DNA of 64,000 nucleotides from Thermoplasmata archaeon (GCA_049300255.1 JBAQJJ010000049.1:43920-107919), one strand, 5' to 3'. Positions 15,538 through 60,497 are shown, counted from the stretch's first letter. Translations and numbers: made by a program. Notes: generated from the sequence alone by a model not told the origin.

Positions 15538-16091
15538 CGTCCGCCGAGGAGGTCGAACGGGTCCTCACGTCGGACCCGTCCCCCGACCAACGGATCCTAA
15601 ATTTCGCCGGGCTCCTCCAACGCGACAGCGGAAGCGAGGTCATCATCGTCGGGGGCTCGGCGATCGAGGTCCATAGCCGCGGAAAGTACCATTCCGACGA
15701 CCTCGACCTCCGAGGAGATCGGGAGGCCATCCGTCGCGTCCTCGCCCGCTGGGGGTTCCGAAACGCGGGTAAGATTTGGTTACGAGAGGACTGGAAGATC
15801 GCCGTCGACGTCGTCGGAACGAAATATACGGGCGATCCGTACCGGGCGGTCCGGGTCGAAACGAAATTCGGTCCCGTCCGCGTCGCCGTCGTCGAGGACC
15901 TAATCATTAAACGCCTTGCCGAAGCGAAGCATTGGAAAACGAAAAAGGCGATCCAGGAGGCCGCGGTCCTCTGGGCGGACTATCGGGACCGGATCGACTT
16001 CGAGTACCTTAACCGGCAGGCGCGGGAGTACGACGTCGTCGACCTCCTCGCCGATTTCCGCGAGCGGCTCGACGGGACCGTAAGCGACTAG
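15534..16091 (+). CDS. Minimal nucleotidyltransferase-fold protein (AbiEii/DUF1814-like or MNT-like), putative toxin
   Basis: Motif IIVGGSAIEVHSRGKYHSDDLDL matches the GS-x(9-13)-D-x-D nucleotidyltransferase signature. 185 aa, translationally coupled to the upstream wHTH gene. Confidence 0.5.
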   Translation: MTSAEEVERVLTSDPSPDQRILNFAGLLQRDSGSEVIIVGGSAIEVHSRGKYHSDDLDLRGDREAIRRVLARWGFRNAGKIWLREDWKIAVDVVGTKYTGDPYRAVRVETKFGPVRVAVVEDLIIKRLAEAKHWKTKKAIQEAAVLWADYRDRIDFEYLNRQAREYDVVDLLADFRERLDGTVSD

Positions 16092-16239
16092 CGTTCCCGT
16101 CGCCGCTGTCCCTTTACGACCTCGACCTTGCCTCGGCAGAATTCCACGACCTGTTCGATCCTCGTTTTACCCCGCTTTTCGTCACTATGAATGACCCGCT
16201 AGCGTTACAGTTCCCTTCTGGCCGAACGATTAAATATGG

Positions 16240-16284
16240 CTGACAGGACTCTTATGCGGCTGCTGACAACTGTCTGACAAACAG
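16240..16284 (+). promoter_or_regulatory. Triple CTGACA(A) repeat with an inverted-repeat arm (CTGT...ACAG) upstream of smc, preceded by an AT-rich TTAAATAT (16230-16237)
   Basis: Read directly: gCTGACAggactcttatgcggctGCTGACAActgtCTGACAAacag; about 55-100 nt upstream of the smc ATG. Confidence 0.3.
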
Positions 16285-16339
16285 CCTAGATCAGCGTGCG
16301 GGATCGAGAAACTACCCCTCCAGCGAGGATAATCTCTCC

Positions 16340-19300: not shown

Positions 19301-19969
19301 TCGATGGGATCCGTCAACCAGCGCGCGCTCGAAGAATACGATCAGGAGAAGCGACGGCTCGACGAATTCCAGTCCGAGGCGGAGCGTCTCTCGTCCGAGA
19401 AGAAGGAACTGCTGGGCCTCGTGGGCGAGATCGAGAAGAAGAAACGCGAGAAGATCGGACAAGTCGTGGTCGCGGTCAACGTAGCCTTCAAGGAAATCTA
19501 CGGGGAGCTCTCGGGAGGCGGCATCGGAGAAATCGCCCTCGAATCACCGCAGGATCCCTTGGCCGGCGGGCTGCTGATCCGAGCCAGTCCGGTCGGGAAG
19601 ACCGTCGAACGGCTCGAACAGTTGAGTGGCGGCGAGAAGTCGCTCGCCAGCTTGGCATTCATCTTCTCGCTCCAGCGATACGACCCAAGTCCGCTCTATG
19701 TGTTCGACGAGGTGGATATGTCGCTCGATGGCCTCAATGCGGAGAACGTCGGCCGCATGTTGCGGCGCAATTCCGAACGCGCCCAATTCATCGTGATCTC
19801 GCTCCGGAAGGTGACCCTGAAGTTCGCCCATCGACTCTTCGGCGTTACGATGCACGGAGATGGATGCTCACGGGTCGTCGGACTCAACCTCGACGAGATC
19901 GTCGACATCGACGAACGAGACCGGCTGACCCCCACCGCCGCGGCTCCAACTCCCTTGGAGGCCCGATGA
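16340..19969 (+). CDS. smc: Chromosome segregation protein SMC
   Basis: 1209 aa. N-terminal Walker A (GPNGMGKSNI), long coiled coils, hinge, C-terminal signature LSGGEKSLASLAFIFSL and Walker B LYVFDEVD. Confidence 0.95.
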   Translation: MYLKRIKVRNFKSFAGATELPFQPGFTGVAGPNGMGKSNISDSILFVLGPTSSKALRADRLTHLFFNGGAAKKPATECEVSLVFDNQDQLLPVNAAEVEITRYVKLAPSDPNGYYSYFYVNGKRTTQTEIDAILSHARLSGDGYNLVQQGDVNKVVSMGPIPRRGLVERLAGISQYDEELERAETKRTDLDTNLDRINTLLTEIRNRISALESQRLQAIQYRQIQEEKRRAEAQLARAGHVLARQEVTTCETQLAQLTAEIEKLKAEAGKLTEERDSAAEAIDAAEKEIARQGGESAAKFKLELDDKRLAFAKLDQNLQSLQETLHGLDDRIHVLSEQVKADEKDAHKFEAQERTLASQLEELAQQAESQARDLKRATGDAEQSQGKLVGTRKQVLELERQYELKQKAWQEIVQRRESAKASLDAADRSQAQAEEDHRDRELELKDLELRIKQSGAGPKGVQVRTADLQKELQQLKTQEKELTASTDRLAQEVAELNRRYLALDARLKARAESGSRATPMAAVDFLLSQRNLGKLPGIRGTVEELAQFDAKFQTALNVAGGSRFQALVVETDQVAEECIKLLKAEKRGRATFLPLNKMLPGRPHGKALIASQTAGTQGFALDCVHFDESLRPAFWYVFGETVIMDDLGHARAQMGGVRLVTLGGDLIEATGAISGGYLETGEKGRGGDTGVELKRLGEELRTKSAAESTARQSLQKALERIRGLGEELTKRSVEDEAHRSTRDLLDGDLTSARDRLTEAKDRVDSVLAARIKAETAYQKANVEADSSANELTRLKEQLSKIHEEYLGHLPGALSARLRELQEASQTTADARVKLNGELESVRASLAALLQNLTTHRSEVGEAKQQSAEKRKELQAVTKGRDGAKEALEALKTVESQQSETVKAATEKKRKLDAERLKIVEKLARAETQISGRQTMLDQEQIRLATAQQRLAEVEAALKEFPEPAADEKPIAVDELKRTITTLGAQLDSMGSVNQRALEEYDQEKRRLDEFQSEAERLSSEKKELLGLVGEIEKKKREKIGQVVVAVNVAFKEIYGELSGGGIGEIALESPQDPLAGGLLIRASPVGKTVERLEQLSGGEKSLASLAFIFSLQRYDPSPLYVFDEVDMSLDGLNAENVGRMLRRNSERAQFIVISLRKVTLKFAHRLFGVTMHGDGCSRVVGLNLDEIVDIDERDRLTPTAAAPTPLEAR

Positions 19970-34557: not shown

Positions 34558-35346
34558 CTAGGTGGGTCGCGAGGATGCGGCGGTCGTAACCGCCGTCGGA
34601 AGTGCCGCGGCTGCCTCTCGATCGAGAAACCAGTGCGTGGGTCCCGCACTTCGTACGAGGCTCGCGGGCAGTTCATGGGTTCCGCGGGGAAAGGACCGGA
34701 AGATAGCCTCCACCGCCTTCTCCTTGTCCCTCCCCGACACGAGGAAACACACCTCCCTGGAGGACGCGAGCGCGGGAAGGGTCAGCGTGAGTCGGGGTAG
34801 AAACGGGGGCTGTCCGGCACGCCGAATCGCGACGACCGTTTGGCGCTTCTCGCGCAAGGCCCGCCCTCGAGGAAAGAGAGAAGCCGTGTGACCGTCGGGG
34901 CCAATGCCGAGCAGCACGACATCGAACCGGGGCGGCGCACGGCTGTCCAGTCGAATTGGCCCGAGCGCACGAGCATAATCACGCGCCGCTGCCGAGGGAG
35001 GACGGACCTCCCCGCGCATCCGATGCACGCGTCGGCGCGGCACGGACACGTGAGAGAGGAGTGATTCCCACACGGTGCGGTAGTTGCTCGCCGCGGCGCG
35101 GGGGCCGACACACCGTTCGTCGCCAAAGAACACCTCGGTGTCCTTCCAGGGAAAGCGCATCCGGTACTCCCGCGCGAGGAGCTCATACAGGCCTTGGGGA
35201 GTGTGCCCGCCGGCAACCACCCAGGAGAACACGCCTCGCACCCGAACAGATTCCCTCGCCTTGAGGTTCAGATGTCGTGCCAAAGCCGAGGTGGCCGAGG
35301 GGAGCGTAGGGTGAATGTGCAGGACGCGCGCTACGGCGGGCTCCAC
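34558..35346 (-). CDS. pgl: 6-phosphogluconolactonase
   Basis: SWVVAGGHTPQGLYELLA, GDERCV, LLGIGPDGHTASLFP motifs. The GTG at 35346 gives about 260 aa and a 16-bp overlap with the zwf stop; the ATG at 35457 is the alternative. Confidence 0.8.
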   Translation of the reverse strand: MEPAVARVLHIHPTLPSATSALARHLNLKARESVRVRGVFSWVVAGGHTPQGLYELLAREYRMRFPWKDTEVFFGDERCVGPRAAASNYRTVWESLLSHVSVPRRRVHRMRGEVRPPSAAARDYARALGPIRLDSRAPPRFDVVLLGIGPDGHTASLFPRGRALREKRQTVVAIRRAGQPPFLPRLTLTLPALASSREVCFLVSGRDKEKAVEAIFRSFPRGTHELPASLVRSAGPTHWFLDREAAAALPTAVTTAASSRPT

Positions 35347-36788
35347 TGGTGTCCCCACTGCTGGACGAGCGCCTGCGCCTCGGGCGGCCCCCAGGTATTT
35401 GCCGGATAGAAGACGATCGGAGGGGGATGTTCTAGCAGCGGAGCGTACATTCGCCACGACTCCTCGACCTCGTCCGCTCGAACGAACAACGTGGGGTCGC
35501 CCAGTATCACATCGATCAGGAGCGTCTCGTATCCGTCCGGGAGTTCTCCGAAGACATCGGCGTAGTGGAATTTCATACGGTTGGTCTGCACGCGGATCTC
35601 CCGCCCCGGTACCTTGATCTCGAAGGCGAGCTCGAAGCCCTCGTCCGGTTGGATCAGGATCGAGATCCGATCCGGGTTCGCGTCATACTCCCCTTCCGCT
35701 TGAAAGAACGAGACGGGTGGTGCTTTGAACGTCAGCACGACCCGGGTGGACTTGGCCGGAAGGCGCTTGCCCGTTCGTACAAAGAATGGGACGCCCTGCC
35801 ACCGCCAGTTGTCGACCTTGAGGCGAAGGGCGATGAACGTCTCGGTCTCGGAAGTGGAGGAAACGCCCGGCTCGTCGCGGTACGCCTTCACCAACTGTCC
35901 GTCCACGGTGCCCGCGACGTACTGCCCCCGAACGACGTCCTTCGCCCGTAACGGGACCACGCTTTCGAGCACCTTGACCTTCTCGTTCCGTATCGCTTCC
36001 TCATCTTTCGTGGCGGGGGGCTCCATCGCGATCAACGAGAGGAGCTGCGTCACATGGTTCTGCACCATGTCGCGCAGTGCCCCCGACCCGTCGTAGTACT
36101 GGGCCCGACCTTCGAGACCGAGCCGCTCGGCGACGGTGATCTCCACTTTCTCCACCTGGGCGCGATTCCAGACCGACTCCACGAACATGTTGGCGAACCG
36201 GAAGACCATCAGGTTCTGGACCGTCTCCTTGCCTAGATAGTGGTCGATCCGAAAGATCTGCGACTCTTGGAAATTCTTCAGTAGGAGTTGATTGAGCGCT
36301 TGGGCCGATGCCAAGTCGCGTCCAAACGGCTTCTCCACCACCACTCGGGTCCACCCCGGACTCGTGTGGAGACCGGCGTGGCCGATCCCTTCGAGCGTAG
36401 GGGTGAATGCCTCGAGAGGGAGCGCGAGGTAGAAGATCCGGTTGCCCGGGAGTCCATGGGCTTCCTCGGACGCTTCGATGCGCGTGCGAAGGTCGTCGTA
36501 CCCGGTCGGTGACTCGTCGTCCAGTTTGTGATACAAGAGCGTCGAGGCGCAGAACTGTTGGATCTCCGCATCGCTCCCCAATTTCTCGGCCCTCAGGGAT
36601 TGCATGGCCATGGCGCGGAACGTAGCGTCGTCCATCGGACGCCGCGCGATTCCGAGCACGATACTCCCGGCCGGGAACGCCCCCTTCGCCGCGAGACGAA
36701 AGAGCACGGGCATCAGCTTGCGCTGAAACAAATCCCCGGTCGCCCCGAACACGGCCATAAGGTGCTTCGCCGGTACGGGGTTTTCCAT
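35331..36788 (-). CDS. zwf: Glucose-6-phosphate 1-dehydrogenase
   Basis: MAVFGATGDL NAD(P)-binding motif and the G6PD active-site region (RIDHYLGKE). I placed the start at MENPVPAK, which has a GGGAGAG Shine-Dalgarno-like element 8 nt upstream. Confidence 0.9.
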   Translation of the reverse strand: MENPVPAKHLMAVFGATGDLFQRKLMPVLFRLAAKGAFPAGSIVLGIARRPMDDATFRAMAMQSLRAEKLGSDAEIQQFCASTLLYHKLDDESPTGYDDLRTRIEASEEAHGLPGNRIFYLALPLEAFTPTLEGIGHAGLHTSPGWTRVVVEKPFGRDLASAQALNQLLLKNFQESQIFRIDHYLGKETVQNLMVFRFANMFVESVWNRAQVEKVEITVAERLGLEGRAQYYDGSGALRDMVQNHVTQLLSLIAMEPPATKDEEAIRNEKVKVLESVVPLRAKDVVRGQYVAGTVDGQLVKAYRDEPGVSSTSETETFIALRLKVDNWRWQGVPFFVRTGKRLPAKSTRVVLTFKAPPVSFFQAEGEYDANPDRISILIQPDEGFELAFEIKVPGREIRVQTNRMKFHYADVFGELPDGYETLLIDVILGDPTLFVRADEVEESWRMYAPLLEHPPPIVFYPANTWGPPEAQALVQQWGHQWSPP

Positions 36789-36790
36789 GC

Positions 36791-37699
36791 TCAGCTCTCC
36801 CGCTTGACTTCGTGCCCGCCGAACTTGTTCCGCATCATCGCGAGGAGGCGCTCGGTGAACGGATCCTGCTCCCGCGAGCGTAACCGCTGTTGCAACGACA
36901 ACGTGATCACGGGAGCCGGAATGTTGAGGTCCATCGCCTCGGTAACGGTCCAGCGCCCTTCTCCAGAGTCCGCGACCCAGGGTTCGATACCCGCGAGCGT
37001 TGGGTTCTCCGCCAGAGCGGATTCGGTCAATTCCAGCAACCAGGAACGGATCACGCTCCCGTAGCGCCACACCTGGGCGACTTGGTGAAGATCGAGCGCG
37101 AAATCGGTCTTCCCCTGGATGACGGCGAAGCCTTCCGCGTAGGCTTGCATCATGCCGTACTCGATCCCATTGTGTACCATTTTCACAAAGTGTCCGGAGC
37201 CGACGGCTCCCATGTGACCCCAACCTTTCTGCGGGCCGGGCGCCAACGTCTCCAGGATGGGTCGGATCCGCTCGACATCCGCCTTCTCTCCGCCGACCAT
37301 CATCGAGTACCCCTCGGCGAGCCCCCAGATCCCACCGCTCGTACCGACATCGACGTAGCGGAACCCCCAGCCCTTCACGAGCGCCGCTCGCCGCAACGTA
37401 TCGCGATAGTAGGAGTTCCCTCCGTCCACGATCATGTCACCGGGCGCGAGCAGCGCGTGGAGCTCTTCCAGGGTTTGGTCGACCGGGGCCCCGGACGGAA
37501 TCATGAGCCAGACGATCCGGGGAACCGCCAACTGACGGACCAGCTCGGCCAGCGAATAGGCGCCGACCGCACCCTGCGCCACCACGGCATCGACGGTCGC
37601 CCTCGTCCGAGCGAATCCGACGACTCGGTGGCCCCCCTTGACCAGACGCTCCGTCATGTTCGCTCCCATCTTTCCCAATCCGACCATTCCTAGTTCCAT
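36791..37699 (-). CDS. gnd: 6-phosphogluconate dehydrogenase (decarboxylating), short Gnd-like form
   Basis: MVGLGKMGANM N-terminal Rossmann motif, 302 aa, typical of the about 300-aa gnd subfamily. Its stop is 3 bp after the zwf start. Confidence 0.85.
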   Translation of the reverse strand: MELGMVGLGKMGANMTERLVKGGHRVVGFARTRATVDAVVAQGAVGAYSLAELVRQLAVPRIVWLMIPSGAPVDQTLEELHALLAPGDMIVDGGNSYYRDTLRRAALVKGWGFRYVDVGTSGGIWGLAEGYSMMVGGEKADVERIRPILETLAPGPQKGWGHMGAVGSGHFVKMVHNGIEYGMMQAYAEGFAVIQGKTDFALDLHQVAQVWRYGSVIRSWLLELTESALAENPTLAGIEPWVADSGEGRWTVTEAMDLNIPAPVITLSLQQRLRSREQDPFTERLLAMMRNKFGGHEVKRES

Positions 37700-37709
37700 G
37701 GTTCTTCTC

Positions 37710-38324
37710 CTACCCTGACGCGATGCCGGCGAGCGCTAACTCTTCCCCCAAGTGCTCGGGGTCTCGTACCTGTAAGGTATGGAGGCCCAGTCGAGCCGCC
37801 GCGGCAATATTCTCGGGCCGATCGTCGAGAAAGAGGGTCTCTTCAGGCGTGCGTTGAGTGAGCGTCAGCGCGTTTTGGAAGGCCGCCGGTTCCGGCTTCC
37901 GCCAGCCGGTGTAGCACGAGCTGAAAAAGACGTGGAAGACTTCCTTCAACCCGAACGCCTGGATCCGATATTCGTTGAGCATCCGGGATTCGTTGTTCAA
38001 TGCCGCCATGACATACCTACCTTCACCTCGGACTGCTCGAGCTGCCGCCAGCGCGGCGACGTTGCGACGGGAGCGGTCCCGCATGAACTGGAGATAGGTT
38101 TCCGGGGAAAACGACCGGGGCGCGTAGAAGACCGTAGCCTCAAGATAGCCGGGGACGTCAAGCCGTCCGGTCTCGAACGCGGCGTCCACGAGCTGATGGC
38201 GCCGTTCCAATTCGTTCGGGTCCAATTCGAAATGGGCAGCGGCCGCGGCCCGCGCCCTGTGGTCCCAGCCATTCGACAGCAACACACCTCCGACGTCCCA
38301 GAGCAACAGGGAGACGTTAGCCAT
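37710..38324 (-). CDS. HAD-superfamily hydrolase/phosphatase
   Basis: Motif I region LLWDVGGVL and motif IV FLDDRPENI; embedded in the pentose-phosphate operon. Confidence 0.65.
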   Translation of the reverse strand: MANVSLLLWDVGGVLLSNGWDHRARAAAAAHFELDPNELERRHQLVDAAFETGRLDVPGYLEATVFYAPRSFSPETYLQFMRDRSRRNVAALAAARAVRGEGRYVMAALNNESRMLNEYRIQAFGLKEVFHVFFSSCYTGWRKPEPAAFQNALTLTQRTPEETLFLDDRPENIAAAARLGLHTLQVRDPEHLGEELALAGIASG

Positions 38325-41073
38325 GGAGCGCCTCCTGGAGTATCTGGAGGCCGCCCGCAACATCTGCGCCCAAGTCGATCCGAAGGACGCGACGGTGCTT
38401 CTGCTGGAGGGCCTGGTAGTCGCCCACCGACTGAGAACGGATCAAGTCTCCAAAGGAGTAGTTGGCGCCGGGGACGGGGATGTCCTGGGTCGGAGTGTCG
38501 ACGAGCTGGAGAAACAAGCCGGTGTTCGGGCCGCCCTTGTGCAGCTGCCCGGTGGAGTGGAGGAAGCGCGGCCCGTACCCGAAAGTGGTGGCAACGTGGA
38601 GTCGCTCCAGGAGCCCCCGGCGCAGCGTCTCGAGCGCGTTCGAAGTGGCCGGGCGGGGCGCGAGATACGCTTGGATCCCCACGTAGTCCCCGGGTCGGCA
38701 CGTACTAATCCACCGCCGGAACTCCGCCACCAGCACGCCGCGATCGGCGCTCGGCACGGTGACGATACCGGACGCTCCGGAGGACCCACTGGGCGGGGCC
38801 ATTACTTTGCGGGCGAGCTCCTTTGCGAGCTCTACGTCCGGCTGGTCGTAGGGGTCAATGCCGAGGATCATTCCCGCACTGGCCACCGCCACCTCCCATC
38901 GGAAGAACTCCTCGCCGACTGCGAGTGGGTCGGACACCCGGACCCGAACGACAGGAAAACCCGCCGTCTCGAGTCGGGACGTGTGGGCCCGCAGCGCGGT
39001 GTCCGGCGCCGTACCGACCTGGATCTCGACGAACAGACGATCCGAGCCGTACTGCTCGACCGAGACCGGGGGTTCGTCGACGACGGGGACGATGCCCTTG
39101 CCTATCTTGCCAGTACTTTCTGCCACCAATTGCTCGACCCAGATCGGAAACGGAGCGAACCCTGCCGCTGCGTAGAAGGTCAACTTGTCCCGACCGCCCG
39201 CGCCCAGTTCTCCAAGGACCGCCCCCAAGGAGAGTCCGGGGTTCTCGTCGACCCGGAGCGATGGCGCGCAAGCTTCCGCCATCGTCCAGGCGCGGTCAAG
39301 CAAAGCGCGGACATCCAGACCGATGAGAGCAGCGGGGACGAGTCCGAACATCGTGAGCGCCGAATACCGGCCCCCTACGGTCGGGAGCGCTAGGAATACC
39401 TCACGGAATCCTTCGCCCCGGGCCAGCTTCTCTAGGGAGGTACCCGGATCGGTGATCGCCGCAAAGCATCGGCCCGGCGGAACCCCGCTCACCCGAAGCT
39501 GCTCCCAAAAGTAACGATAGAAGGAGAGGGGCTCGAGGGTCGTGCCCGATTTGCTCGAGACGAGGAAGAAAGTGTGCGCGGGATCGATCCGGGCGCGCAC
39601 GGCGGCGATCGCATCGGGGTGAGTGCTGTCGAGCACGAGCAGCTCCGGATACCCGGGTCGGTGCCCGAAGAGGCCCCCTAACACGTCCGGGGCGAGGCTC
39701 GAACCGCCCATGCCGAGTACGATGACATGACGAAATCCCTCGGAACGGATCTGATTCGCAAAATGCTCGAGACGGGCCACCTGCTCGTGCATCATCTCTG
39801 GGAGCTGGAGCCAGCCCATTCGCTCTGCCACGTCCGTAGGCGGCGCGGCGGGCCACAGCGTCGCGTCGCGCTTCCAAAATCGCTCCGCGACCCTCTCGCT
39901 CTGCCAGCTCAGCAAGCGAGCCGCGACTCGGGCGCCGTCGCTCCCCAGGGTCCAGGACTGGGGGTCCACCCGACCGACCAAGATCGCCTCCTTCTTGGTC
40001 GCCAGCGAACGGAGGAGGAGCGCGTAGGAATCCGAGAACAGCGCGACGCCCTCCGTTTGCAGATCCTCGGTGATTTGATCGAGGTTGATCCCCACACTCG
40101 CGGCCCGTTGGAGCAGCTGCCGCGCGTCGGAGATCCCCTCCCCGAGCGTGTCTCCGCGTACCACTCCGTGGTCTTCGAATGCTGTGATAGTGGCCGGTGG
40201 GATCGTATCCACGGTCTCGGGTCCGATCAGCTCCTCGACGTAGAGGGTGTCCCGGAAATGTGGGTCCTTGGTGCTGGTGCTCGCCCAGAGGACCCGCTGC
40301 GGCCGCGCCCCTCTCGCGCTCCACGGCGTGAACGACGCCCCGTGGAAGATTTCCTGAAATCGCGCATAGATCACCCGTGCGTTGGCGAGCGCGATCTTGC
40401 CCTTCAATACGGACGCATCGGGGGCGCTAGAGGCCTCGAGCGCTCGATCGACGGCCGTATCGATCCGACTCACGAAGACGGAGGCGACGGAGGCGACGCG
40501 CGTTGGGTTGTTAGCACGCTCTATCCCGCGTAGATAGGCTTGCGCGACGGCTTCGTATTGGGGAAGGGAGAACAGGAGCGTGATGTTGACGTTGATTCCT
40601 TCGGCCAGCAGCGCCTCGATCGCCGGTACCCCTTCCTTCGTTCCGGGAACTTTGATGAGAATGTTCGGTCGGTCGACCTTCGCCCACAAGCGCTGGGCCT
40701 CCGAAATCGTACCGGCGGTATCGTGAGCAAGGCCGGGGGCGACTTCCAGACTGACGAACCCGTCCTGTCCCCGCGTACGGTCGAAGACGGAGCGCAACAC
40801 ATCGGCCGCCAAGCGCACGTCTTCCACGGCCAAGCGCTCGTAGAGCTCCGCGGGGCCGAGGTGAGGATCCTGGGCCAGGATCTCTTGGAGCGAAGCGTCG
40901 TAATCGTGACTCCCGGCGATGGCCTTCTCGAAGATAGTGGGATTGATCGTAACTCCCGTAATCCCGTCCTTCTCGACCATCCGTTTCAGTTCGCCGCTGG
41001 TGAGAAGGCTTCGGCGAATGTAGTCGAGCCAAGGCGATTGACCCTGAGCCAGCAAGGCGGCCAGGCCGGTCAT
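38317..41073 (-). CDS. Bifunctional transaldolase / glucose-6-phosphate isomerase fusion
   Basis: 918 aa. The N-terminal about 350 aa are transaldolase ([23 protein letters not shown]). The C-terminal about 550 aa are a PGI (sugar isomerase SIS-type motifs [13 protein letters not shown]). Confidence 0.85.
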
Positions 41074-43085
41074 GGAATGCTCACCCGCACGCGCTTCCCA
41101 AGCACCCGCTCCGCTGACTCAAGCACATGATCCACGGTGAATCCGAATTCTCGCTGGAGGATCGGTCCCGGCGCGGAAGCACCGAAATGGTCGATCCCGA
41201 TGGATTCGCCCGTCGCGCCAACGTATCGAGACCAACCCAGCGTACTGCCGGCTTCGACGGAGACTTTCGGGAGGTCCCGCGGCAGGACCGAATCTCGATA
41301 CGCCAGGGATTGTTCGTCGAATATTTTCCAACACGGCAGCGACACGACGCGAGCTTGGATCCCCTTTTCGACCAACCGCCCCTGCGCTTCCAATACGAGT
41401 CCTACTTCCGAGCCCGTTGCAATCAGGATCAATTCCGGACGACCGGAGGGGGCTTCGGACAGCACGTACCCTCCACGTGGGGTTCCCTCCGCTATCGGGT
41501 ATCGGTTCGGGTCCAAAACCGGGACCTTCTGTCGAGTGAAAACTAGCGCCGTCGGGCCCGCACGCTCGACTGCCACCCTCCATGCTGCGACGCTCTCATT
41601 CGCATCCGCGGGCCGAAACAATGTCAGGCCCGGAATCGCGCGCAGGCTGGTCAACTGCTCGATCGGTTGGTGAGTGGGCCCGTCCTCGCCCATTCCGATG
41701 CTGTCGTGCGTGAAGACCAAGACGATGTGAGTCTGCTGCAGCGCCGCGAGTCGAATCGCCCCGCGCGCGTAGTCGGAGAAGACCAGGAATGTTCCGCCAT
41801 AGGGGAGAAGGCCCCCGTGCAGCGCCATGCCGTTGAGGCAGCCGACCATAGCGTGTTCGCGAACACCAAAGTGGAAATTACGTCCGAGAGCGTCGGAAGG
41901 GGAGTAGTCAAGCGAGCCGGGCAACAGGGTCTTCGTCGAGGGAGAAAGGTCAGCGGCGCCACCGAGCAGCGCCGGGAGTTTGGGCGCCAGTGCGTCAAGC
42001 ACTTTTTGGGAAGCATCTCGGGTCGCCATCGGACCGTCGCTCGGCTTGAATGTGGGCAGGGCCGAATCCCAACCCGACGGGAGCGTCCCGGTGAATTGGG
42101 CTTCAATCTGATGTGCGAGCTCCGGTTGCTGGGTGCGGAGTCGATCTCTAAGGGCTTCCCACTCCTGCTGCCACTGAGCACCCCGGCTCATCGCGCCCCG
42201 AAAGTGTGTTCGAACTTCCTCGGGTACGAGGAACGTCGGTTCCAACGGCCAGCCGAGTTTCTCCTTGGTCGCTTTCAGGTTTGCCGGACCCAGCGCCTCA
42301 CCGTGAGCCTCCCGCGTGTCTTGGACCGGGCTTCCGTACCCTATGTGGGTGCGAACACAAATGAGCGAAGGTCGCTTGGTTTCGTCTCGCGCTTGGCGCA
42401 AGGCGGTTTCGATCGCGGTCAAGTCGTTCCCATCGGATACACGCAACACTTGCCAGCCGTAGGCCTCGAAGCGTTTCGGAACGTCTTCCGTGAACGCCCA
42501 GATGGTGGGTCCTTCGAGCGTGACGTGGTTGTCATCGTAGAGGTAGATCAGCTTGCCCAGCCCGAGGGTTCCCGCGAGCGAAGCGGCCTCGGATGCGATC
42601 CCCTCCATCAGGTCCCCATCCGATACGATCCCGTAGGTGTAGTGGTCGACGAGCGGAATGCCGTCTTGATTCCAAGTCGCAGCAAGATGCCGCTCGGCGA
42701 TCGCCATCCCGACGCCCATCGCGAACCCTTGCCCCAATGGACCAGTCGTCGCCTCGACTCCCGCGGTTCGACCATACTCCGGGTGCCCCGGGGTGCGGCT
42801 ACCCCACTGACGAAATTGTTGGAGCTCCGCGATCGGCAGGTCGTAACCGGTGAGGTGGAGCAATGCGTAGAGTAGGGCGGACCCGTGCCCCGCCGAGAGA
42901 ACGAATCGATCTCGATTCGGCCACTGCGGATTGGCCGGATTGTGCCGCAGAAATCTATCCCAAAGAACGTAGGCCATTGGAGCGGCCCCAAGCGGTAGCC
43001 CAGGATGGCCGGACTTCGCCTTCTCCACCGAGTCCACAGCCAGGAATCGAATCGTGTTGATACAGGTCAGGTCCAAGTCGTCCAT
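41070..43085 (-). CDS. tkt: Transketolase
   Basis: 671 aa. TPP-binding motifs ([18 protein letters not shown]), transketolase C-terminal domain. The stop overlaps the tal-pgi start by 4 bp. Confidence 0.92.
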
Positions 43086-53715: not shown

Positions 53716-55785
53716 CTAAGTGAGGCTAAATCGAGCGATTTCATCATTGTAGAGAAAGTCGGTCGCGAACAGGAATCCGGAATCCGGCGCGACCGCTAGA
53801 AAGTAAGGGTGAGGGGCCGCGTAGTACGTGATCGAGTTGAAGAACGTGCTCGCTGAAATCTCGTACACCCCACCGTTTTCGGGATCCGCCACAAAGAGGT
53901 TCCCACCGTCCACGACCACCCCAGTGGGATTTCCACCGAGGTAGATGGTCGTTACTACCTGGCCATTCGACACGTTCACGACGTCGAGGTCACCTGTGCC
54001 TGTGCTCGTCACGAAAAGGTTTCCTTGATCGACCGCAAGCTGCTGAGGCTGGAGGTCCACCGAAAAAGTGTTGACCACTTTATGCGAGGCACCAGAAACG
54101 ACGGATACTGAGCCAGAGTACGAATTCGACACATAGACGGTTCCGTGGCTCGCGAAGACGCCGACCGGCCCATGGCCCACCAGAGTCGCGGCCGTAACCA
54201 GATAAGAATGGTCATTGATGAACATCAAGGAATTCGAGGCGAAATTGGCCACGTCGACCGTGTGATCTACCGGGTCGTACGAAATTCCTTCGGGCTGCAA
54301 TCCGACCGGGATTGTGGCGATGACTTTGTTGGAAGCCACAGCGATGACAGAAACCTCGGCTGCAAGCGAGTCGGTGACGTAGATGGCATTTGTTCCGGAA
54401 TCATAGGCCACGCCATAGGCGCCAGCGCCGACCGTGAGGACATGAACGACCTTGTTCGTCGCCTCGCCGATTACCGCCACGGTTCCCGAGCTATAGCGTG
54501 CGACATATTCCGTCCCCGTTGGAGTCGTCGCGAGTCCGGCTGGTTCTGTTGTGTACAACTTCGCAACCGGGCTGAGAGGAGGTCCGCGAATATCGTCAAT
54601 CGTGTTTTCCTCCTGATCGGGCACGTACATTGCACCGTTCGATTGGTCGTAGAACGGCGTCTGGGGGTCCTCGAATGTGTTAATCGATGCGAGCACCCCC
54701 GAGCCGCTGTCGATTTCGACCGACACTCCAGTTGTTACCAAAAGTCCCTCCAGAGGGTAGTATCCAATGTTAAAATCCGCACAGTCACTGTCCACGTAGA
54801 ACGTGTGAGTCACTGTTAGATCGGCAATTTGCGTGACCGCCGAACAGTCTTCGCCCCCAACCCCTCCGTAATCCACTACGTAAACATCTGTATTTGCGGC
54901 ATCGTAAACAATCCCAACAGGATAGTTTCCAACCTTTATCGTCTGCACAACCGTGGTCATAGCCGCGTTGACGACGATTACTTTGTTGCAGTAAGAGAGC
55001 GTAATGTAGACGAACCCGTTGGTCGGGTCGAACGTCATCTGGTTCGAAAAGCAATTGCTTCCTAGTGGGATGCGGGCGGTCACCGCATAAGTGCTGGGGG
55101 AAATGGCGCTCAAGTTCGAGCTTTCGTCCGTGACATAAATCAGATTGGAAATCGGATTGTAGAGCGTCCATGTCGGATCAGGCCCAACCCTAATCGACCG
55201 TGTAACGGTAAGCCCATGGATTACGGTCACATTGTCACCACCTCGATCAGCGACGAACGCGTCGTTTGTCTTCGGGTCTACGGCCACTCCCCACGGCTCC
55301 GTCCCCACTGGATCTGTAGCTAGCGGCTCGCTCGTCTTGCTCGAAAAAATCGATACAGTGTTGCTATAGATGTCCGTCACGTAGATTCTTCCCGAGCTCG
55401 GGTCTACGGCCCCATACTGAGGCCCCTGCCCCAAACTAATGGACCGCCCCGCGATCGCTGCGCTCGGTCCTTGAGCCAACGCCTGTTTCCCGGTGGGAAT
55501 CCCCCCGGAACGCACGTCGGCCCCAGAAACGACATGGCCAAGAAATGCAGGCTGGATCGAGATCGCAAGTAAGAAAATCGGAATCGAAATTACTAGCCAC
55601 CCGGACCGTTGCGCGGTGACTCTGTGTCGATTCTTCACAATTGTTCGAAACTCGCGTATTTGGACAAACCGGTTAAAGCCAGCGATGTGTGCCGAATCCG
55701 GTTCGGCCGTGCCTTCGCCGTAACACATTCGGGCGGCGTCGATGGCAGGGTCGCTGGCAGAGCCAAGAAAGTCTATGTAACTCAC
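53716..55785 (-). CDS. YVTN beta-propeller repeat surface protein with N-terminal membrane anchor
   Basis: 689 aa; repeated ..VYVTD/ IYVTN.. about 40-aa units, N-terminal hydrophobic helix (WLVISIPIFLLAISI); the start may be an internal Met or Val. Confidence 0.78.
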   Translation of the reverse strand: MSYIDFLGSASDPAIDAARMCYGEGTAEPDSAHIAGFNRFVQIREFRTIVKNRHRVTAQRSGWLVISIPIFLLAISIQPAFLGHVVSGADVRSGGIPTGKQALAQGPSAAIAGRSISLGQGPQYGAVDPSSGRIYVTDIYSNTVSIFSSKTSEPLATDPVGTEPWGVAVDPKTNDAFVADRGGDNVTVIHGLTVTRSIRVGPDPTWTLYNPISNLIYVTDESSNLSAISPSTYAVTARIPLGSNCFSNQMTFDPTNGFVYITLSYCNKVIVVNAAMTTVVQTIKVGNYPVGIVYDAANTDVYVVDYGGVGGEDCSAVTQIADLTVTHTFYVDSDCADFNIGYYPLEGLLVTTGVSVEIDSGSGVLASINTFEDPQTPFYDQSNGAMYVPDQEENTIDDIRGPPLSPVAKLYTTEPAGLATTPTGTEYVARYSSGTVAVIGEATNKVVHVLTVGAGAYGVAYDSGTNAIYVTDSLAAEVSVIAVASNKVIATIPVGLQPEGISYDPVDHTVDVANFASNSLMFINDHSYLVTAATLVGHGPVGVFASHGTVYVSNSYSGSVSVVSGASHKVVNTFSVDLQPQQLAVDQGNLFVTSTGTGDLDVVNVSNGQVVTTIYLGGNPTGVVVDGGNLFVADPENGGVYEISASTFFNSITYYAAPHPYFLAVAPDSGFLFATDFLYNDEIARFSLT

Positions 55786-58119
55786 GTGGCTTCAAATCGC
55801 GTGACTCCAAACGTCGGTCGCCCCGACGCCAACTCTCCCCCGCCGTCGGACGCCGAGCGACGCATTCCCCTGACGGCAGTGAATCTCGATCCGGCGTGGG
55901 TGCGCATTCTCGAACGGGAGGGGATTTCATCGCTCTACCCGCCCCAGGCTGAGGCGATCCCGCCGGTGCTCGCGGGCGAGAGCGTGCTCCTCGCCTGCCC
56001 GACGGCCAGCGGAAAATCGTTGGTGGCTTATCTCGCGCTCGTTCGCGCGGCGACGCGGCACCAGACCGGCCTCTACCTGGTCCCTCTACGCGCTTTGGCT
56101 CAGGAGAAGTACGACGAGCTTCGGGCGTTCGAGGAGCTGGGTCTCCGGATCGGCCTATCGATCGGCGACTTCGACCTACCCGCCGATCGACTGGCCAAGC
56201 TCGACATCCTCGTGGCGACCAGCGAAAAGGCGGACGGCCTATTGCGGAAGGGCAGTCCCTGGTTAGATCGACTCGGCGTCGTCGTTGCGGACGAGATTCA
56301 TCTCATGCGGGATCCCGAGCGAGGTCCGACGTTAGAAGTGACCCTGACCCGCCTCAAACGGGTCTTGCCGGAACTACAGATCGTGGGTCTATCCGCGACG
56401 GTCGGGAACTCGCAGGAGATCGCCGACTGGCTCAAGGCACGTCACATCCGCAGCGAGTTTCGTCCGGTCCCCTTAAAGTCGGGCGTCTACCACGCGGGAC
56501 GAATCCTCTTCACCGACCTCACGACTCGAGATTTGGACGCGCCGGGCGAGGCGCTTCCCCGCCTCGTGCGCACCGTCATTGAGGAGGGCGGGCAGGCACT
56601 CGTCTTCGTCAATACACGTAAGGCCAGCGAGCAGACAGCGCAGCAGTTGACGGCGACCGTCCGCCCGCTTCTCACATCCGCGGAGCGCAGTGCGGCGCGC
56701 GTCACCGGCGAGGAACTGCAATCCGTGTCGGAAGAAGACACGGAGGGAATTCGTCGACTGGCCGCACTGCTTCCTCACGGGGTCGCGTTCCATAATGCGT
56801 CCTTGACGAACCCGGAGCGTCGCGTCGTGGAACGCGCGTTTCGGGACCGAGTGTTAAAGGCCCTGGTTGCGACCCCGACCCTCGCGGCCGGGATCAATCT
56901 TCCGGCCCGACGGGTCATCGTGCGCGACACGACGCGCTACGATGACCGGATCGGCATGCAGGCGCCCATCTCGGCCATGGAAGTGCAACAGATGTGCGGC
57001 CGAGCCGGCCGACCCCGATTCGACCGAACGGGCGAAGCGATCCTCATCGCCCGGAGCGAGGACGACGTGGAGCGACTGTTGGACGACTACCTTTCGGCAC
57101 CGCCCGAGGACATTCGATCTCGCCTCGCCGCCGAACCCGCGCTTCGAATGCACGTGCTCGCCCTCATCGCGAGCCAGGCGGTACAGACTGAGGACGAGCT
57201 CGAGGATTTCTTTCAAGGGACCTTTTACGGGCACACCCTCCCTCTGCCGGATCTCGCCGACACGATCCGGTCGGTGCGGCGTTTCCTCGAAGAGAACGAC
57301 CTATTGGCGCCCGGCACCGCGTTGCGGGCGACGCCGTTCGGGGCCATGACATCGGAGCTGTATCTCGATCCGCTGAGCGCCATCGTACTCCGCTCGATGC
57401 TCGAGAAAGCGCCGATCGGCGTTCAGCCGTTCTCGATTCTCGCCGCCGTGGCCGCGACGCCGGACCTCCCGCCGGTGTTCTTGCGACGTGGCGAAGAGGG
57501 CCAATACCTCGCGCGCTTTACCGACGAGTCCGCCGAGCTGTTGGTCCAGCCCGAAGAGGCGCCCCTCGAGCTCGATCTCGACCTCTTTCTCGCCACGCTC
57601 AAGACTGCGGCCATCCTCGAGGATTGGATCGCAGAGACCCCTATTGTCACTCTGACGGAAAAATTTGGGATCGGGGCGGGAGACTTGCGGACGAAGGTCG
57701 AAGATGCGGACTGGCTCCTCTTCGGTGCCTCGCGGCTCGCCACCCGTTTTCAGCGACGCCTGTCGCGGCCGATCGACGACCTCGCGATGCGGATCCGCTA
57801 TGGGGTCCGCGAAGAGCTACTGGACCTGGTTCGGCTGCGCGGAATCGGACGCGTCCGCGCCCGTCTCCTCTTCCGGGCCGGATACGAGGACCGGAATGCG
57901 CTCCGAGCGGCACCGCTCGAGCGAATTGCCCAAGTGCTCAGGTCGCCCCAATTGGCCGCGTCGGTGCTCGAGCAGGTACGCCGCGGTCGAAAGGAGGCCA
58001 TGGAGTCGACCCCCCCGCCACTCGCTCCGGTCTCGGGGGGGGTCCCGACGCCGCGACCCACGGAGAAGCAGAAACGACCTCGAACTCTCGACGAGTTTCC
58101 AGCGGCGCCCGACTCTTGA
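55786..58119 (+). CDS. Hel308/Ski2-like ATP-dependent DNA helicase
   Basis: Q-motif PPQAEA, Walker A CPTASGKS, DEAH box (VVADEIH), SAT, helicase C motifs, and C-terminal WH/ratchet/HhH regions. A GTG start is assumed immediately after the upstream gene. Confidence 0.85.
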   Translation: MASNRVTPNVGRPDANSPPPSDAERRIPLTAVNLDPAWVRILEREGISSLYPPQAEAIPPVLAGESVLLACPTASGKSLVAYLALVRAATRHQTGLYLVPLRALAQEKYDELRAFEELGLRIGLSIGDFDLPADRLAKLDILVATSEKADGLLRKGSPWLDRLGVVVADEIHLMRDPERGPTLEVTLTRLKRVLPELQIVGLSATVGNSQEIADWLKARHIRSEFRPVPLKSGVYHAGRILFTDLTTRDLDAPGEALPRLVRTVIEEGGQALVFVNTRKASEQTAQQLTATVRPLLTSAERSAARVTGEELQSVSEEDTEGIRRLAALLPHGVAFHNASLTNPERRVVERAFRDRVLKALVATPTLAAGINLPARRVIVRDTTRYDDRIGMQAPISAMEVQQMCGRAGRPRFDRTGEAILIARSEDDVERLLDDYLSAPPEDIRSRLAAEPALRMHVLALIASQAVQTEDELEDFFQGTFYGHTLPLPDLADTIRSVRRFLEENDLLAPGTALRATPFGAMTSELYLDPLSAIVLRSMLEKAPIGVQPFSILAAVAATPDLPPVFLRRGEEGQYLARFTDESAELLVQPEEAPLELDLDLFLATLKTAAILEDWIAETPIVTLTEKFGIGAGDLRTKVEDADWLLFGASRLATRFQRRLSRPIDDLAMRIRYGVREELLDLVRLRGIGRVRARLLFRAGYEDRNALRAAPLERIAQVLRSPQLAASVLEQVRRGRKEAMESTPPPLAPVSGGVPTPRPTEKQKRPRTLDEFPAAPDS

Positions 58120-59197
58120 CCCATTCTTCCACCGGCACGAGGAGCTGGATCATCGTCCGGGTACCGCCGTCGCCTCCGGGCCGGACCTCGCGCCGCACCA
58201 CGCCGGCTTGCTCGAGACGAATCATACGTCGCCAAAAAGTCGTCGCGGCCAAGGGGCGCACGCCGGTTTCTCGGGCGAATCGGGCCTCCCAGACGCGAAC
58301 GGCCGCGACCGACGAGGACGTGCCTTGGCATGCGCGGTCTAACGCCCATAGGACGCGCGGTTCGATACTCCCGCGGGACCACGAATCGGTGAGCGGTCCC
58401 ATCGAAGCGGGGGGAAGGGTCGTGGGAATCGAAAGTTCGCGCCGTAGCAGCTCCATGGCTCGTCGGGCCCCTCCTCCGTCTCGGAGAACCCGATCCGTAA
58501 CTCGGCGGGCGAGGTCCGGAGGGGGTGCTCCCCCGAGCGCTCGTCGGGCCCGCTCCTCCACGATCTGATAGATCTCTTCTCGCGAGTACTCCCGCAGACC
58601 AATCGACCGACGCGGCATCTCAAGCTCGGGCACTTCCCGCCCCAGTCCCGCGACCTGTTCGGTCACTCCCGCGAGAATGATCCACATCGGGGGGAGGCCG
58701 GATTCTCCTTCCGGGAGAAATCGGTCGGGCGAATTGAACGCACGCAGGATGGGAACGACCGAGGGCCCCCCCACGTCGATATCTTCTAAGACCACAACGG
58801 TCGGCCGGTTCATCCGGCGGAGACGTCGTAGATAGCCGGCCAGAATTTCGACGACCGGGAAACCTCGACCGCGAAACCCCTCGTCCAACTGCTGCACGAG
58901 GGCGGTCGCCACACCCAGAGTTCCCCGACACCAACGGACCCGGACCGTCGAAGTCAACGGAAGGGGCCCGGCTCGCGCCGTACGCAACCGGTCGACCACT
59001 TCGCGCGCCGCCCGGCGAGCAATGATCGAGGTCCCACTCCCGCGTGGACCGATCACGGAAGCGACCCGGGCCGGTCCTTTCGGGGGGTAGTCAGGGTCGA
59101 GCAGGGCCAGCAGCCTCTGTACCTCGCCGTGGCGGGCGAGGGCGGTCGGGGGGAGCCAATCGGTGGTGAGCACTTCCGGATAGGTCGCACGCAACAT
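57938..59197 (-). CDS. Orc1/Cdc6-family AAA+ protein with degenerate Walker A (GPRGSGTS) and C-terminal winged helix
   Basis: Orc1/Cdc6-like N-terminus (DWLPPTALARHGEVQ), Walker B VVVLEDID, sensor-2 region GGGARRAMELLRR, WH end FWRRMIRLEQAGVV. The P-loop lysine is replaced by Thr. The 3' 180 nt overlap Hel308. Confidence 0.7.
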   Translation of the reverse strand: MLRATYPEVLTTDWLPPTALARHGEVQRLLALLDPDYPPKGPARVASVIGPRGSGTSIIARRAAREVVDRLRTARAGPLPLTSTVRVRWCRGTLGVATALVQQLDEGFRGRGFPVVEILAGYLRRLRRMNRPTVVVLEDIDVGGPSVVPILRAFNSPDRFLPEGESGLPPMWIILAGVTEQVAGLGREVPELEMPRRSIGLREYSREEIYQIVEERARRALGGAPPPDLARRVTDRVLRDGGGARRAMELLRRELSIPTTLPPASMGPLTDSWSRGSIEPRVLWALDRACQGTSSSVAAVRVWEARFARETGVRPLAATTFWRRMIRLEQAGVVRREVRPGGDGGTRTMIQLLVPVEEWVKSRAPLETRREFEVVSASPWVAASGPPPRPERVAGGSTPWPPFDRGVPARAPTRPIGAT

Positions 59198-59203
59198 GCG
59201 TCA

Positions 59204-59238
59204 TAGGAATTCTTCTTGCTATAAGAATTCTTATAATC
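59204..59238. promoter_or_regulatory. AT-rich palindromic element (AAGAATTCTT twice) with TATA-like TTATAAG, 20-40 nt upstream of the Orc1/Cdc6 start
   Basis: taggaattcttcttgctataagaattcttataatc read directly; it is the only strongly AT-rich stretch in the icd/cdc6 divergent intergenic region. Confidence 0.4.
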
Positions 59239-59366
59239 GCACCCTTCACCCCCGGATGCCCCTCGACGAGAACCAATGCCCGATCGGCCCGGATGAGTCG
59301 CCCTCAGGTAATCTGGAAGTCACGTGGCCGCTCACGATTTAACTGGGGGCCGGCCTCGGGCCGACC

Positions 59367-60497
59367 TTGGAGCGAAGAATGACCTATCGCGTCACGCTGA
59401 TCCCGGGGGACGGGATCGGGCCGGAAGTTACGCAGGCCGCGCGGCTCGTCGCCGAAGCGACCGGCGTCCCGATCACGTGGGAAATTGCCGAAGCCGGCGA
59501 GAAAGCCATCGAATCGACCGGCACGCCACTCCCGGCTTCGGTTCTCGAATCCGTCCGAAAGAATCGCCTGGCCCTCAAGGGGCCGATCACCACGCCGATC
59601 GGAGGAGGATTCCGATCCGTCAATGTACAGCTCCGAGTGGAGCTGGACTTGTTCGCGTCGGTGCGACCGGCCCGCGCGATCGCGGGGGAAGGGACGCGCT
59701 TTCCCGAGACCGACCTAATCGTCGTACGCGAGACCACAGAAGGTCTCTACTCGGGGGTCGAACACTGGGTCGATCGAAATCACACCGCCGCGGAGACCGT
59801 AGCGATCGTGACCCGCGCGGCGTCGGATCGGATCATCCGATTCGCTTTCGAACTCGCGCGCCGGCAGGGCCGACGCCACCTCACAGCGGTCCACAAGGCC
59901 AACATCATGAAGACGACCGGGGCGCTGTTCCAAACCGCCTTTCGCGAAATGGCCCCTCAGTATCCGGATATCGAAAGTGACGAGCGTCTGATCGACAACA
60001 TGTGCATGCAACTCGTGAAGAAGCCATCCGAATACGACGTGATCGTCACGACCAACCTGATGGGCGACATCTTGTCGGATCTGTGCGCTGGGTTGGCGGG
60101 AGGTTTGGGCGTGGCGCCGGGAGCGCTCCACGGCGATTCGATCGCCGTGTTCGAGCCGGTGCACGGATCCGCTCCCAAGTACGCGGGACAGGACAAGGCG
60201 GATCCCGTGGCGGAGATCCTGTGCCTCGAGCTCTTATTCCGTCACCTCGGCGAAAACGAGGCGGCCGAACGTATCTGGCGAGCCGTGTGGGAAACGATCG
60301 CGGAGAAGAAGGTCGTGACCTACGACCTCGCATTGCCACAGTACACGACGCGGCCGGTCACGCCGTCGAGCTGCTCGGCCATGGCGCAGGAGATCGCGCG
60401 GAAGGTTCCGCTGGTCGATCTTACCAAACCGGCCCCGGTCTACACGCCCCACCCGTTGAGTGCGACCAAAGGGATCGACGATCACTTGCAAAATTGA
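59367..60497 (+). CDS. Isocitrate/isopropylmalate dehydrogenase family enzyme (most like NAD(P)-isocitrate/homoisocitrate dehydrogenase)
   Basis: IPGDGIGPEV, HKANIMK, NLMGDILSDLCAGLAGGLG motifs of the beta-decarboxylating dehydrogenase family. Confidence 0.85.
   Translation: MERRMTYRVTLIPGDGIGPEVTQAARLVAEATGVPITWEIAEAGEKAIESTGTPLPASVLESVRKNRLALKGPITTPIGGGFRSVNVQLRVELDLFASVRPARAIAGEGTRFPETDLIVVRETTEGLYSGVEHWVDRNHTAAETVAIVTRAASDRIIRFAFELARRQGRRHLTAVHKANIMKTTGALFQTAFREMAPQYPDIESDERLIDNMCMQLVKKPSEYDVIVTTNLMGDILSDLCAGLAGGLGVAPGALHGDSIAVFEPVHGSAPKYAGQDKADPVAEILCLELLFRHLGENEAAERIWRAVWETIAEKKVVTYDLALPQYTTRPVTPSSCSAMAQEIARKVPLVDLTKPAPVYTPHPLSATKGIDDHLQN

Follow-up and report, generated by a model that had tools for sequence, protein, structure and literature searches.

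A 64,000-nucleotide stretch of a Thermoplasmata archaeon genome (GCA_049300255.1, JBAQJJ010000049.1:43920-107919; here called the window) carries on its minus strand, at 57938..59197 with the stop codon included, an ATG-initiated gene for a 419-residue Orc1/Cdc6-like protein without a Walker A lysine, and this gene converges on that of the helicase Hel308. We find that this Orc-like protein belongs to an apparently undescribed, lineage-wide variant of Orc1/Cdc6 found in soil Thermoplasmata. The clade is distinct and vertically inherited, extending over UBA184/Lutacidiplasmatales-type lineages and some remoter relatives. Sequence comparison points to a DNA-binding protein that would act independently of ATP hydrolysis, would not be an initiator, and would be functionally tied to Hel308, a reading that we hold to be rather probable.

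Fold, family, and ATPase site

The first-pass annotation of the window had assigned the protein an Orc1/Cdc6 architecture, with an AAA+ fold followed by a C-terminal winged helix, and alignment, structure prediction, and structural search agreed with this assignment. A. pernix ORC1 (2v1u; E = 1.8e-7) and S. solfataricus Orc1-1 (2qby_A) aligned to residues 9-253, pairing GPRGSGTS with GLTGTGKT, VLEDID with VLDEID, and GGARRAMELLR with GDARRALDLLR (Orc-like sequence first in each pair). In the AlphaFold model, based on 30 homologues, an AAA+ module (residues 20-255; predicted local distance difference test [pLDDT] of ~90) is joined through a disordered linker (258-277) to a winged helix (278-356), after which the chain ends in a disordered tail (357-419; pLDDT of ~30). 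The order of AAA+ domain, lid, and winged helix is that of Orc1/Cdc6. When this model was searched with Foldseek, the top seven matches were all archaeal Orc1/Cdc6 proteins (E down to 1e-15). The best were A. pernix ORC2 and ORC1, S. solfataricus Orc1-1, and P. aerophilum Cdc6; eukaryotic Orc1/Cdc6 followed, and NLR structures ranked lower than every Orc/Cdc6 match. The protein scored below the cutoffs of the corresponding profiles, including TIGR02928 (E = 9e-12; 44.6 bits against a cutoff of 181.3), Cdc6_C (PF09079; 16.7 versus 25.1), and Cdc6_lid (PF22703; 15.7 versus 27). Its top Pfam match was the generic AAA_16, also below threshold, and nSTAND5 matched weakly.

At least 286 homologues of ~400 amino acids are present in the protein database, nearly all from metagenome bins labeled Thermoplasmata archaeon. 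Scanning one genome per GTDB species, we found relatives in at least 131 species, among them UBA184 and one metagenome-assembled genome labeled Candidatus Lutacidiplasmatales, the TMEG group of soil and peat (PMC9287336). Relatives at 86%, 69%, and 68% identity make up the window's own subclade, and identity to other members is at most ~53%. When 1.84 billion cluster representatives were searched exhaustively with the profile, matches down to E of ~1e-19 (~75 clusters) all lacked the lysine, and canonical proteins (GxxGxGK[ST], hhhhDE) started at E of ~1e-17. No homologues were found in viral contigs. Residues 1-359 differed from the 86% relative at 26, 20, and 161 nucleotides in codon positions 1, 2, and 3, respectively (148 synonymous and 37 nonsynonymous codon differences), and this part of the protein is under strong purifying selection. 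The gene evolves faster than the adjacent Hel308 gene (~48% versus ~70% identity in the same genomes). The word "degenerate" in the earlier description thus suits the catalytic residues but not the protein, which is under strong purifying selection and encoded by a core syntenic gene of the lineage.

The degenerate Walker A motif reads GPRGSGTS (residues 50-57; 59027..59050, minus strand), with Thr56 at the lysine position. Because GPRGSGTS aligns column for column with GLTGTGKT of A. pernix ORC1, the reported loss of the lysine does not stem from a misreading, and joint alignment with canonical proteins likewise rules one out. Motif counts were taken from that joint alignment, which comprised 30 family members and 38 canonical Orc1/Cdc6 proteins. 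In its lysine column, 29 of the 30 family members had T and one had A, whereas all 38 canonical proteins had K; G50, G53, G55, and S57 were invariant, and T56 was conserved in at least 90% of the 30 members. Over ~85 loci, the position was occupied by T, S, A, or P and never by K, and all of the nearest canonical relatives scanned keep GK[ST]. Two relatives carry arginine here (P0166, GPAGSGRT; P0167, GPPGSGRT), which may be an intermediate or partly compensating state.

Other positions of the ATPase site have changed as well. The Walker B equivalent, VVVLEDID (residues 134-141; 58775..58798, minus strand), takes the form hhhhLDD in most relatives. Its first acidic residue is invariant in the core family, and the column of the catalytic glutamate holds D in 30/30 core members and N, Q, or D in remote ones, compared to E in 31/38 canonical proteins. 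The polar residue of sensor 1 is lost in the family. A sensor-2-like GGGARRA (residues 241-247; 58457..58477, minus strand) aligns to GDARRA of Orc1; its arginine is present in this protein and in 23-27 of the 30 core members and is lost in remote members. Given that several positions (Walker A, Walker B, and sensor 1) are degenerate throughout the family, it is a sound inference from sequence that ATP hydrolysis has been lost, which upholds the hydrolysis deficiency proposed in the first pass.

The altered pocket might still bind ATP, ADP, or another phosphate ligand without hydrolyzing it, in which case the protein would be a constitutively "on," ligand-stabilized form of the Orc1-type switch. 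Such a pocket would fit the invariant glycines and following serine of the P-loop, the invariant first acid of Walker B, the sensor-2-like arginine kept by the core family, and the two relatives with GSGRT; in Sulfolobus, moreover, hydrolysis-dead Orc1 forms are the active DNA-binding state. We nevertheless consider this unlikely, since the variable residue at the lysine position (T/S/A/P) means that there is no specific substitute, remote members have lost the sensor-2 arginine too and carry N or Q in Walker B, and related proteins no longer bind ATP once their Walker A lysine is mutated.

The Orc-like protein probably still binds DNA, to judge from its sequence. The initiator-specific motif (ISM) region, EGFRGRGFP (residues 106-114; 58856..58882, minus strand), is located between the two Walker motifs. 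All 30 members share its R-G-F, which matches up with [DE]RGFS in canonical Thermoplasmatota Orc1 and with VPFTGLS in A. pernix ORC1. The winged helix (residues 278-359; 58121..58366, minus strand), a weak match to Cdc6_C, was modeled with a helix at 318-330 and strands at 334-341 and 345-352. Across the 30 members, W322, R323, R324, and R327 of the predicted recognition helix (TTFWRRMIRLEQAG) are invariant, as are R335, R336, R339, G341, G342, G344, G345, and T346 in the wing (RREVRPGGDGGT), a GGxGGT hairpin. When the winged helix alone was searched against PDB sequences, no significant match was obtained, and for this reason its arginines are not equated with R345, R346, R367, and R369 of ORC1. 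A family-specific loop, PDRFLPEGESGLPP (residues 157-170; 58688..58729, minus strand), is nearly invariant, with P157, D158, F160, L161, P162, E163, G164, and P169 unchanged and a pLDDT of 82-95. It sits between Walker B and the sensor-1 strand, with no counterpart noted in the Orc1 sequences compared, and is a candidate interaction surface.

Promoter, Hel308 neighborhood, and convergent overlap

The gene had been described as lying behind an AT-rich palindromic promoter, in the only strongly AT-rich stretch nearby, with AAGAATTCTT present twice. A promoter is indeed present, and several details of that description required revision. The AT-rich stretch at 59219-59238 is one of seven of at least 16 nt in the 64 kb, although it is the longest of them. 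AAGAATTCTT has a single exact copy, at 59223-59232; the other copy, at 59205-59214, differs by one mismatch (AGGAATTCTT, plus strand). A perfect 16-bp palindrome, TATAAGAATTCTTATA, spans 59220-59235 and includes the core promoter AGAATTCTTATA, of the BRE (transcription factor B recognition element)/TATA type (59220..59231, minus strand), 22 nt before the ATG. Read on the minus strand, the imperfect copy is AAGAATTCCT (59205..59214) and falls between the TATA element and the start codon. The 8-mer TTCTTATA occurred 2 times, compared to 0.2 expected.

TCTTATA was found in 72 of 73 upstream regions of relatives, at 21-22 nt from the start codon in 67. Alignment of the 73 relatives revealed an invariant A-G before TCTTATA and a conserved AG..AT.C element 13-20 nt downstream. 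The conserved element is AG[AT][AT]TTCTTATA, and in 1.45 Mb of related loci, 87 of the 88 occurrences of TTCTTATA were at the Orc-like promoter. The palindromic extension and the AAGAATTCCT copy are restricted to the window's subclade, and other relatives have AG..AT.C in the place of AAGAATTCCT. Because GAATTC varies in other members (GTATTC, GATTTC, GTTTTC), we rejected the palindrome as a conserved feature; what is conserved is the half-site and the TATA element. From the spacing, we infer an archaeal BRE/TATA promoter driving a leaderless mRNA; a scan for sigma-70 promoters and terminators was uninformative here, as expected in an archaeon. Conservation of this promoter across proteins that are only ~47% identical suggests that the Orc-like gene is specifically regulated, and we hypothesize that the protein may autoregulate at its own promoter.

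The convergent partner, Hel308 (772 residues; 55801..58119, plus strand), was identified by NF002654 (E = 2e-232) and by the Pfam domains DEAD, Helicase_C, and Helicase_dom4_arc. Its probable GTG start at 55801 was set by reference to relatives; the longest possible open reading frame (ORF), from 55609, overlaps the gene directly upstream, which encodes the window's second NHL-repeat beta-propeller protein (53716-55785). On the other side, a gene of the isocitrate/isopropylmalate dehydrogenase family (icd family; 59379..60497, plus strand; probable ATG at 59379; PF00180 in syntenic loci) is divergent from the Orc-like gene. The order icd family, Orc-like gene, and Hel308 gene is kept in every long locus. 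A remote member on a 59%-GC contig (P0188) also has a convergent Hel308 neighbor, separated by a 33-bp gap without overlap, whereas no canonical Orc1 locus adjoins Hel308. The pairing is thus old and conserved, persisting in a remote relative that lacks the overlap.

Among the related loci (L001-L085), the Hel308 C terminus consists of a variable Pro-rich linker followed by the motif R-x-L-[DE]-[DE]-[FY]-P, here RTLDEFP (58081..58101, plus strand) and located within the overlap; in a remote relative (L116), the terminus is RDLLGEF. Nucleotide entropy over the motif in 67 loci was 0.06, 0.16, and 1.34 bits at codon positions 1, 2, and 3, respectively, a pattern indicating that the terminal motif is under selection. 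Its variable sites correspond to position 2 of the Orc-like frame, where they produce R/P/H/L-type changes. The motif is probably a partner-binding peptide of the PCNA or RPA type. Known C-terminal partner-binding peptides of Hel308-type helicases fit it: P. furiosus Hjm, which is of the Hel308 type, has a C-terminal PIP (PCNA-interacting peptide) box (PMC2636818), and an RPA-binding motif has been described at the C terminus of a Hel308-type helicase (PMC13623763).

An overlap of about 180 bp between the two genes had been noted in the first pass, and we confirmed it (57938..58119; 182 bp counting the Orc-like stop codon, 179 bp by the earlier count). Convergent overlaps occurred in ~75 of 85 loci, with lengths of 47-239 bp (most commonly 128 or 137 bp) that were always 2 mod 3. 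We rejected an assembly artifact as an unlikely cause, given that the same-frame overlap recurs in these loci from other assemblies. Because the Hel308 stop codon falls at nucleotides 1055-1082 (mostly 1067-1082) of the Orc-like gene, directly after W359, the last invariant residue of the winged helix, the overlap coincides with the Orc-like C-terminal tail (residues 360-419; 57941..58120, minus strand). This tail is antisense to Hel308, predicted to be disordered, and variable in length and sequence among relatives. Codon differences in the tail were 4 synonymous versus 20 nonsynonymous, with changes peaking at its own codon position 2; substitutions in the overlap peaked at Hel308 position 3 (16/31, 27/61, and 28/62 in the three closest genomes). 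Only the Hel308 frame is selected in the overlap, and the Orc-like tail is unconstrained antisense read-through, so the overlap is uninformative about the Orc-like protein. Only 18 of the 772 codons in the antisense frame of Hel308 are stops, giving a 59-codon run-on a chance probability of ~0.25, and at a genome GC content of 62-65% an antisense stop is rarely near. The Orc-like frame would then simply run on, antisense to the Hel308 linker and terminal motif, as far as the next stop codon. We conclude that the overlap is a passenger driven by GC content and has no function of its own.

The overlap could be imagined as a regulatory device, in which the mRNAs would be complementary over at least 120-180 nt and expression of one gene would dampen the other through transcriptional interference or duplex formation. 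It is retained in the same frame in ~75 of 85 loci, and no intrinsic terminator-like element stands out in the overlap region. Constancy of frame is trivial when both sides are coding, however, and the length (47-239 bp) is set by the first antisense stop, with a run-on of 59 codons arising about 1 time in 4 by chance. Together with the 33-bp gap that replaces the overlap in the lower-GC remote relative and selection that tracks the Hel308 frame alone, this leaves a regulatory device with little probability.

Elsewhere in the window, no tRNA genes and no Rfam families at the gathering threshold were found in the 64 kb. Adjacent genes at 35331-43085 (minus strand), for glucose-6-phosphate dehydrogenase, a transaldolase-phosphoglucose isomerase fusion, and transketolase, form a pentose-phosphate cluster. 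The glucose-6-phosphate dehydrogenase ORF (PF00479/PF02781) has an N-terminal extension of ~150 amino acids; an enzyme of the oxidative branch of this pathway is uncommon in archaea. A region at 10400-16340 has a lower GC content (0.56-0.58) and several AT-rich patches, and it includes an NHL/YncE beta-propeller surface-type protein (10472-13483), one-mismatch matches to the core 12-mer of the origin recognition box (ORB) at 11416, 11445, 13477, and 14568, and, upstream of SMC (16340-19969), a pair of small ORFs that overlap each other (15049-15537 and 15534-16091). It may be an insertion or simply a region in which surface proteins vary.

Origin and initiator question

The first-pass annotation had found no canonical ORB repeats and cautioned that the locus may not be an origin. 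Our results agree: scans with archaeal and Methanomassiliicoccales ORB consensus sequences yielded no cluster near the gene, elsewhere in the window, or across 1.45 Mb of sequence from related loci. Only a short spacer separates the gene from its divergent neighbor (181 bp here; in most relatives, the start codon of that neighbor is ~95-100 bp upstream), and cumulative GC skew falls monotonically across the 64-kb window without a turn. The evidence as a whole is against a replication origin at the Orc-like locus. The gene of a main initiator is usually found next to an origin (PMC3914693, PMC4153887); in Thermoplasmata relatives, a Cdc6.1 that evolves slowly and is linked to the origin is usually accompanied by a Cdc6.2 that evolves fast and is described as "inactive or accessory" (PMC4153887, PMC3914693). 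A noninitiator role is favored for the Orc-like protein because its clade evolves faster than Hel308 and is without origin features.

Searches for a canonical Orc1/Cdc6 covered individual contigs and loci rather than whole genomes, with the best 120 matches listed for each homology search. When the AAA+ domains of the A. pernix and S. solfataricus proteins were compared by tblastn with the window and with 85 loci, only the lysine-less gene was recovered. No canonical gene was present in the 64-kb window, in flanking sequence of 10 kb at 80 loci, or in the 10 kb past the window end (L093, with L11, HSP20, and GatE). With two canonical proteins as queries (P0215 and P0210), the matches listed came from other Thermoplasmatota lineages, none on known long contigs; the canonical proteins P0407, P0210, P0244, and P0254 were traced to other genomes or to short contigs. 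The closest lysine-bearing relatives, canonical Thermoplasmatota Orc1/Cdc6 proteins, are encoded in other contexts, for example, beside PriS and GINS51. The supplements of the Lutacidiplasmatales paper hold no cdc6 or K10725 entry. A canonical orc1/cdc6 on a 64%-GC contig (L096) has an in-frame TAG at L096:930-932, a position held by Ala or Ser in six relatives; a recoded codon, a pseudogene, or an error in sequencing could each account for it. When metagenomes were scanned with the L096 protein, only apparently Methanomassiliicoccales-like relatives emerged, their lineage being a guess, and the relatives of L096 likewise look Methanomassiliicoccales-like. Methanomassiliicoccales use pyrrolysine.

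If the canonical Orc1/Cdc6 had been lost or replaced, the Orc-like protein would be the main or only initiator, recognizing origins and recruiting MCM without an ATP cycle. Homology searches, contig look-ups, and the metagenome scan assigned no canonical protein, among the matches listed, to a genome bearing the Orc-like gene, and none turned up in the window, the flanks, or the sequence beyond. In addition, the Orc-like gene is conserved as a core gene in single copy, the ISM and winged-helix residues of its product are invariant, and its nearest canonical relatives are Thermoplasmatota Orc1/Cdc6 proteins, some of which adjoin PriS/GINS. We still doubt this strongly. The apparent absence comes from searches limited to the best 120 matches; neither ORB repeats, a long AT-rich spacer, nor a GC-skew turn lies beside the gene in any locus, although main initiators usually adjoin an origin; and the ~48% identity of the Orc-like protein, versus ~70% for Hel308, is at odds with a main copy described as slow-evolving. 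On the same slim footing is the broader proposal that these soil Thermoplasmata would have no Orc1/Cdc6 homologue besides the lysine-less protein, with the result that a whole order would initiate or, with Hel308, restart replication without an ATP cycle. In a milder version, the protein would be a dedicated DNA-bound partner bringing Hel308 or MCM to stalled forks, as part of an unrecognized Orc-Hel308 module.

That the gene is a decaying, pseudogene-like orc1/cdc6 copy or a STAND/AAA_16 defense NTPase, as its subthreshold scores against Pfam and NCBIfam Cdc6 models and its matches to generic AAA_16 and, weakly, nSTAND5 might hint, has almost no likelihood in view of the strong purifying selection on an intact gene in at least 131 species, its synteny with housekeeping genes, and full-length structural matches in which Orc1/Cdc6 outranks NLR/STAND proteins. 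Accordingly, we rejected a pseudogene (148 synonymous versus 37 nonsynonymous codon differences to the 86% relative), a mobile-element copy (conserved synteny, distribution over 131 species, no viral homologues), and a STAND/AAA_16 NTPase (419 residues with a winged helix and no extra domains such as sensor repeats or an effector).

Comparison with known systems and biological meaning

The preferred reading, a noninitiator DNA-binding protein tied to Hel308, can be set against better-known relatives. In a comparison by matches to solved structures, the single sequence matched the Orc1-1 type only, and the profile matched 2qby_A and 1fnn. With the archaeal Orc1-1 type (2V1U; 2QBY chain A), the Orc-like protein shares the three-part architecture, collinearity over the whole AAA+ module, the G-aromatic core of the ISM, the sensor-2 GxARRA, a basic recognition helix, and a Gly-rich wing. 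It differs in lacking the Walker A lysine, the Walker B glutamate, and the sensor-1 polar residue, in scoring far below the family cutoffs, and in carrying the invariant PDRFLPEGESGLPP loop. Its gene has neither ORB repeats nor an origin-like spacer adjacent to it and is partnered with Hel308 instead of an origin or replication genes.

The nearest canonical relatives are Thermoplasmatota Orc1/Cdc6 proteins, and their best solved match is P. aerophilum Cdc6 (1FNN). Like Orc1/Cdc6.2 of Methanomassiliicoccales and Thermoplasmatales, a Thermoplasmatota second-copy type, the Orc-like protein is faster evolving and without ORB association; unlike it, the family combines a rigidly conserved context with a degenerate ATPase site. 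Eukaryotic Orc2 and Orc3 and the clamp-loader subunit delta-prime also keep the AAA+ fold as a structural or DNA-binding module after losing catalytic residues, and they are fixed subunits of hetero-oligomers with active partners.

A functional analogue may be Orc1-2 of Sulfolobales, a noninitiator paralog that acts as a global regulator of the DNA damage response and binds promoters, including its own, through the ISM and winged helix (PMC9738581). The Orc-like gene resembles it in having a strikingly conserved promoter of its own and a DNA-repair helicase as a constant neighbor. The Orc1-2 DNA damage-responsive element (DDRE) hexamer, ANTTTC, was not found in 59198-59260 on the gene strand. 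The residues of the ATP switch (Walker A and Walker B) are intact in Orc1-2, whereas both are replaced in the Orc-like family. Orc1-2 requires ATP binding, the Walker A mutant K72A being nonfunctional and binding DNA poorly, and hydrolysis serves as its off switch (PMC9738581).

The clade retains the complete initiator architecture (AAA+ base, lid, ISM, and winged helix), with the ATP-hydrolyzing residues replaced. Its members would use the ISM and winged helix to bind specific DNA and would do so without a cycle of ATP hydrolysis. The protein may be a noninitiator factor. It could regulate transcription, perhaps also from its own promoter, or it could assist Hel308 as a DNA-binding accessory in replication-fork or DNA-damage transactions; it would resemble Orc1-2 minus the ATP switch.

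Several points weigh against this proposal. Because K72A inactivates Orc1-2, a lysine-less protein must work differently from the best-studied noninitiator. Continued conservation of the P-loop glycines, the first Walker B acid, and the sensor-2 arginine in the core family means that the pocket may still hold a nucleotide or another phosphate ligand. Convergent neighbors are not cotranscribed, and the pairing with Hel308 could be inherited synteny. As no canonical Orc1/Cdc6 has been assigned to the same genomes, the term noninitiator depends on indirect arguments, and DNA binding, target sites, and interaction with Hel308 are all read from sequence.

Orc1/Cdc6 is the archaeal model for control by ATP over origin recognition and helicase loading, and a selected, lineage-wide derivative amounts to a natural experiment on what the Orc1 scaffold does without ATP hydrolysis. 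Interest would be high if these genomes do lack a canonical initiator. For annotation, the overlap illustrates how convergent genes in a GC-rich genome can share a long stretch of sequence that is under selection for only one of them. The pairing with Hel308 and the private promoter offer testable leads to the control of replication and repair in abundant, uncultured soil archaea.

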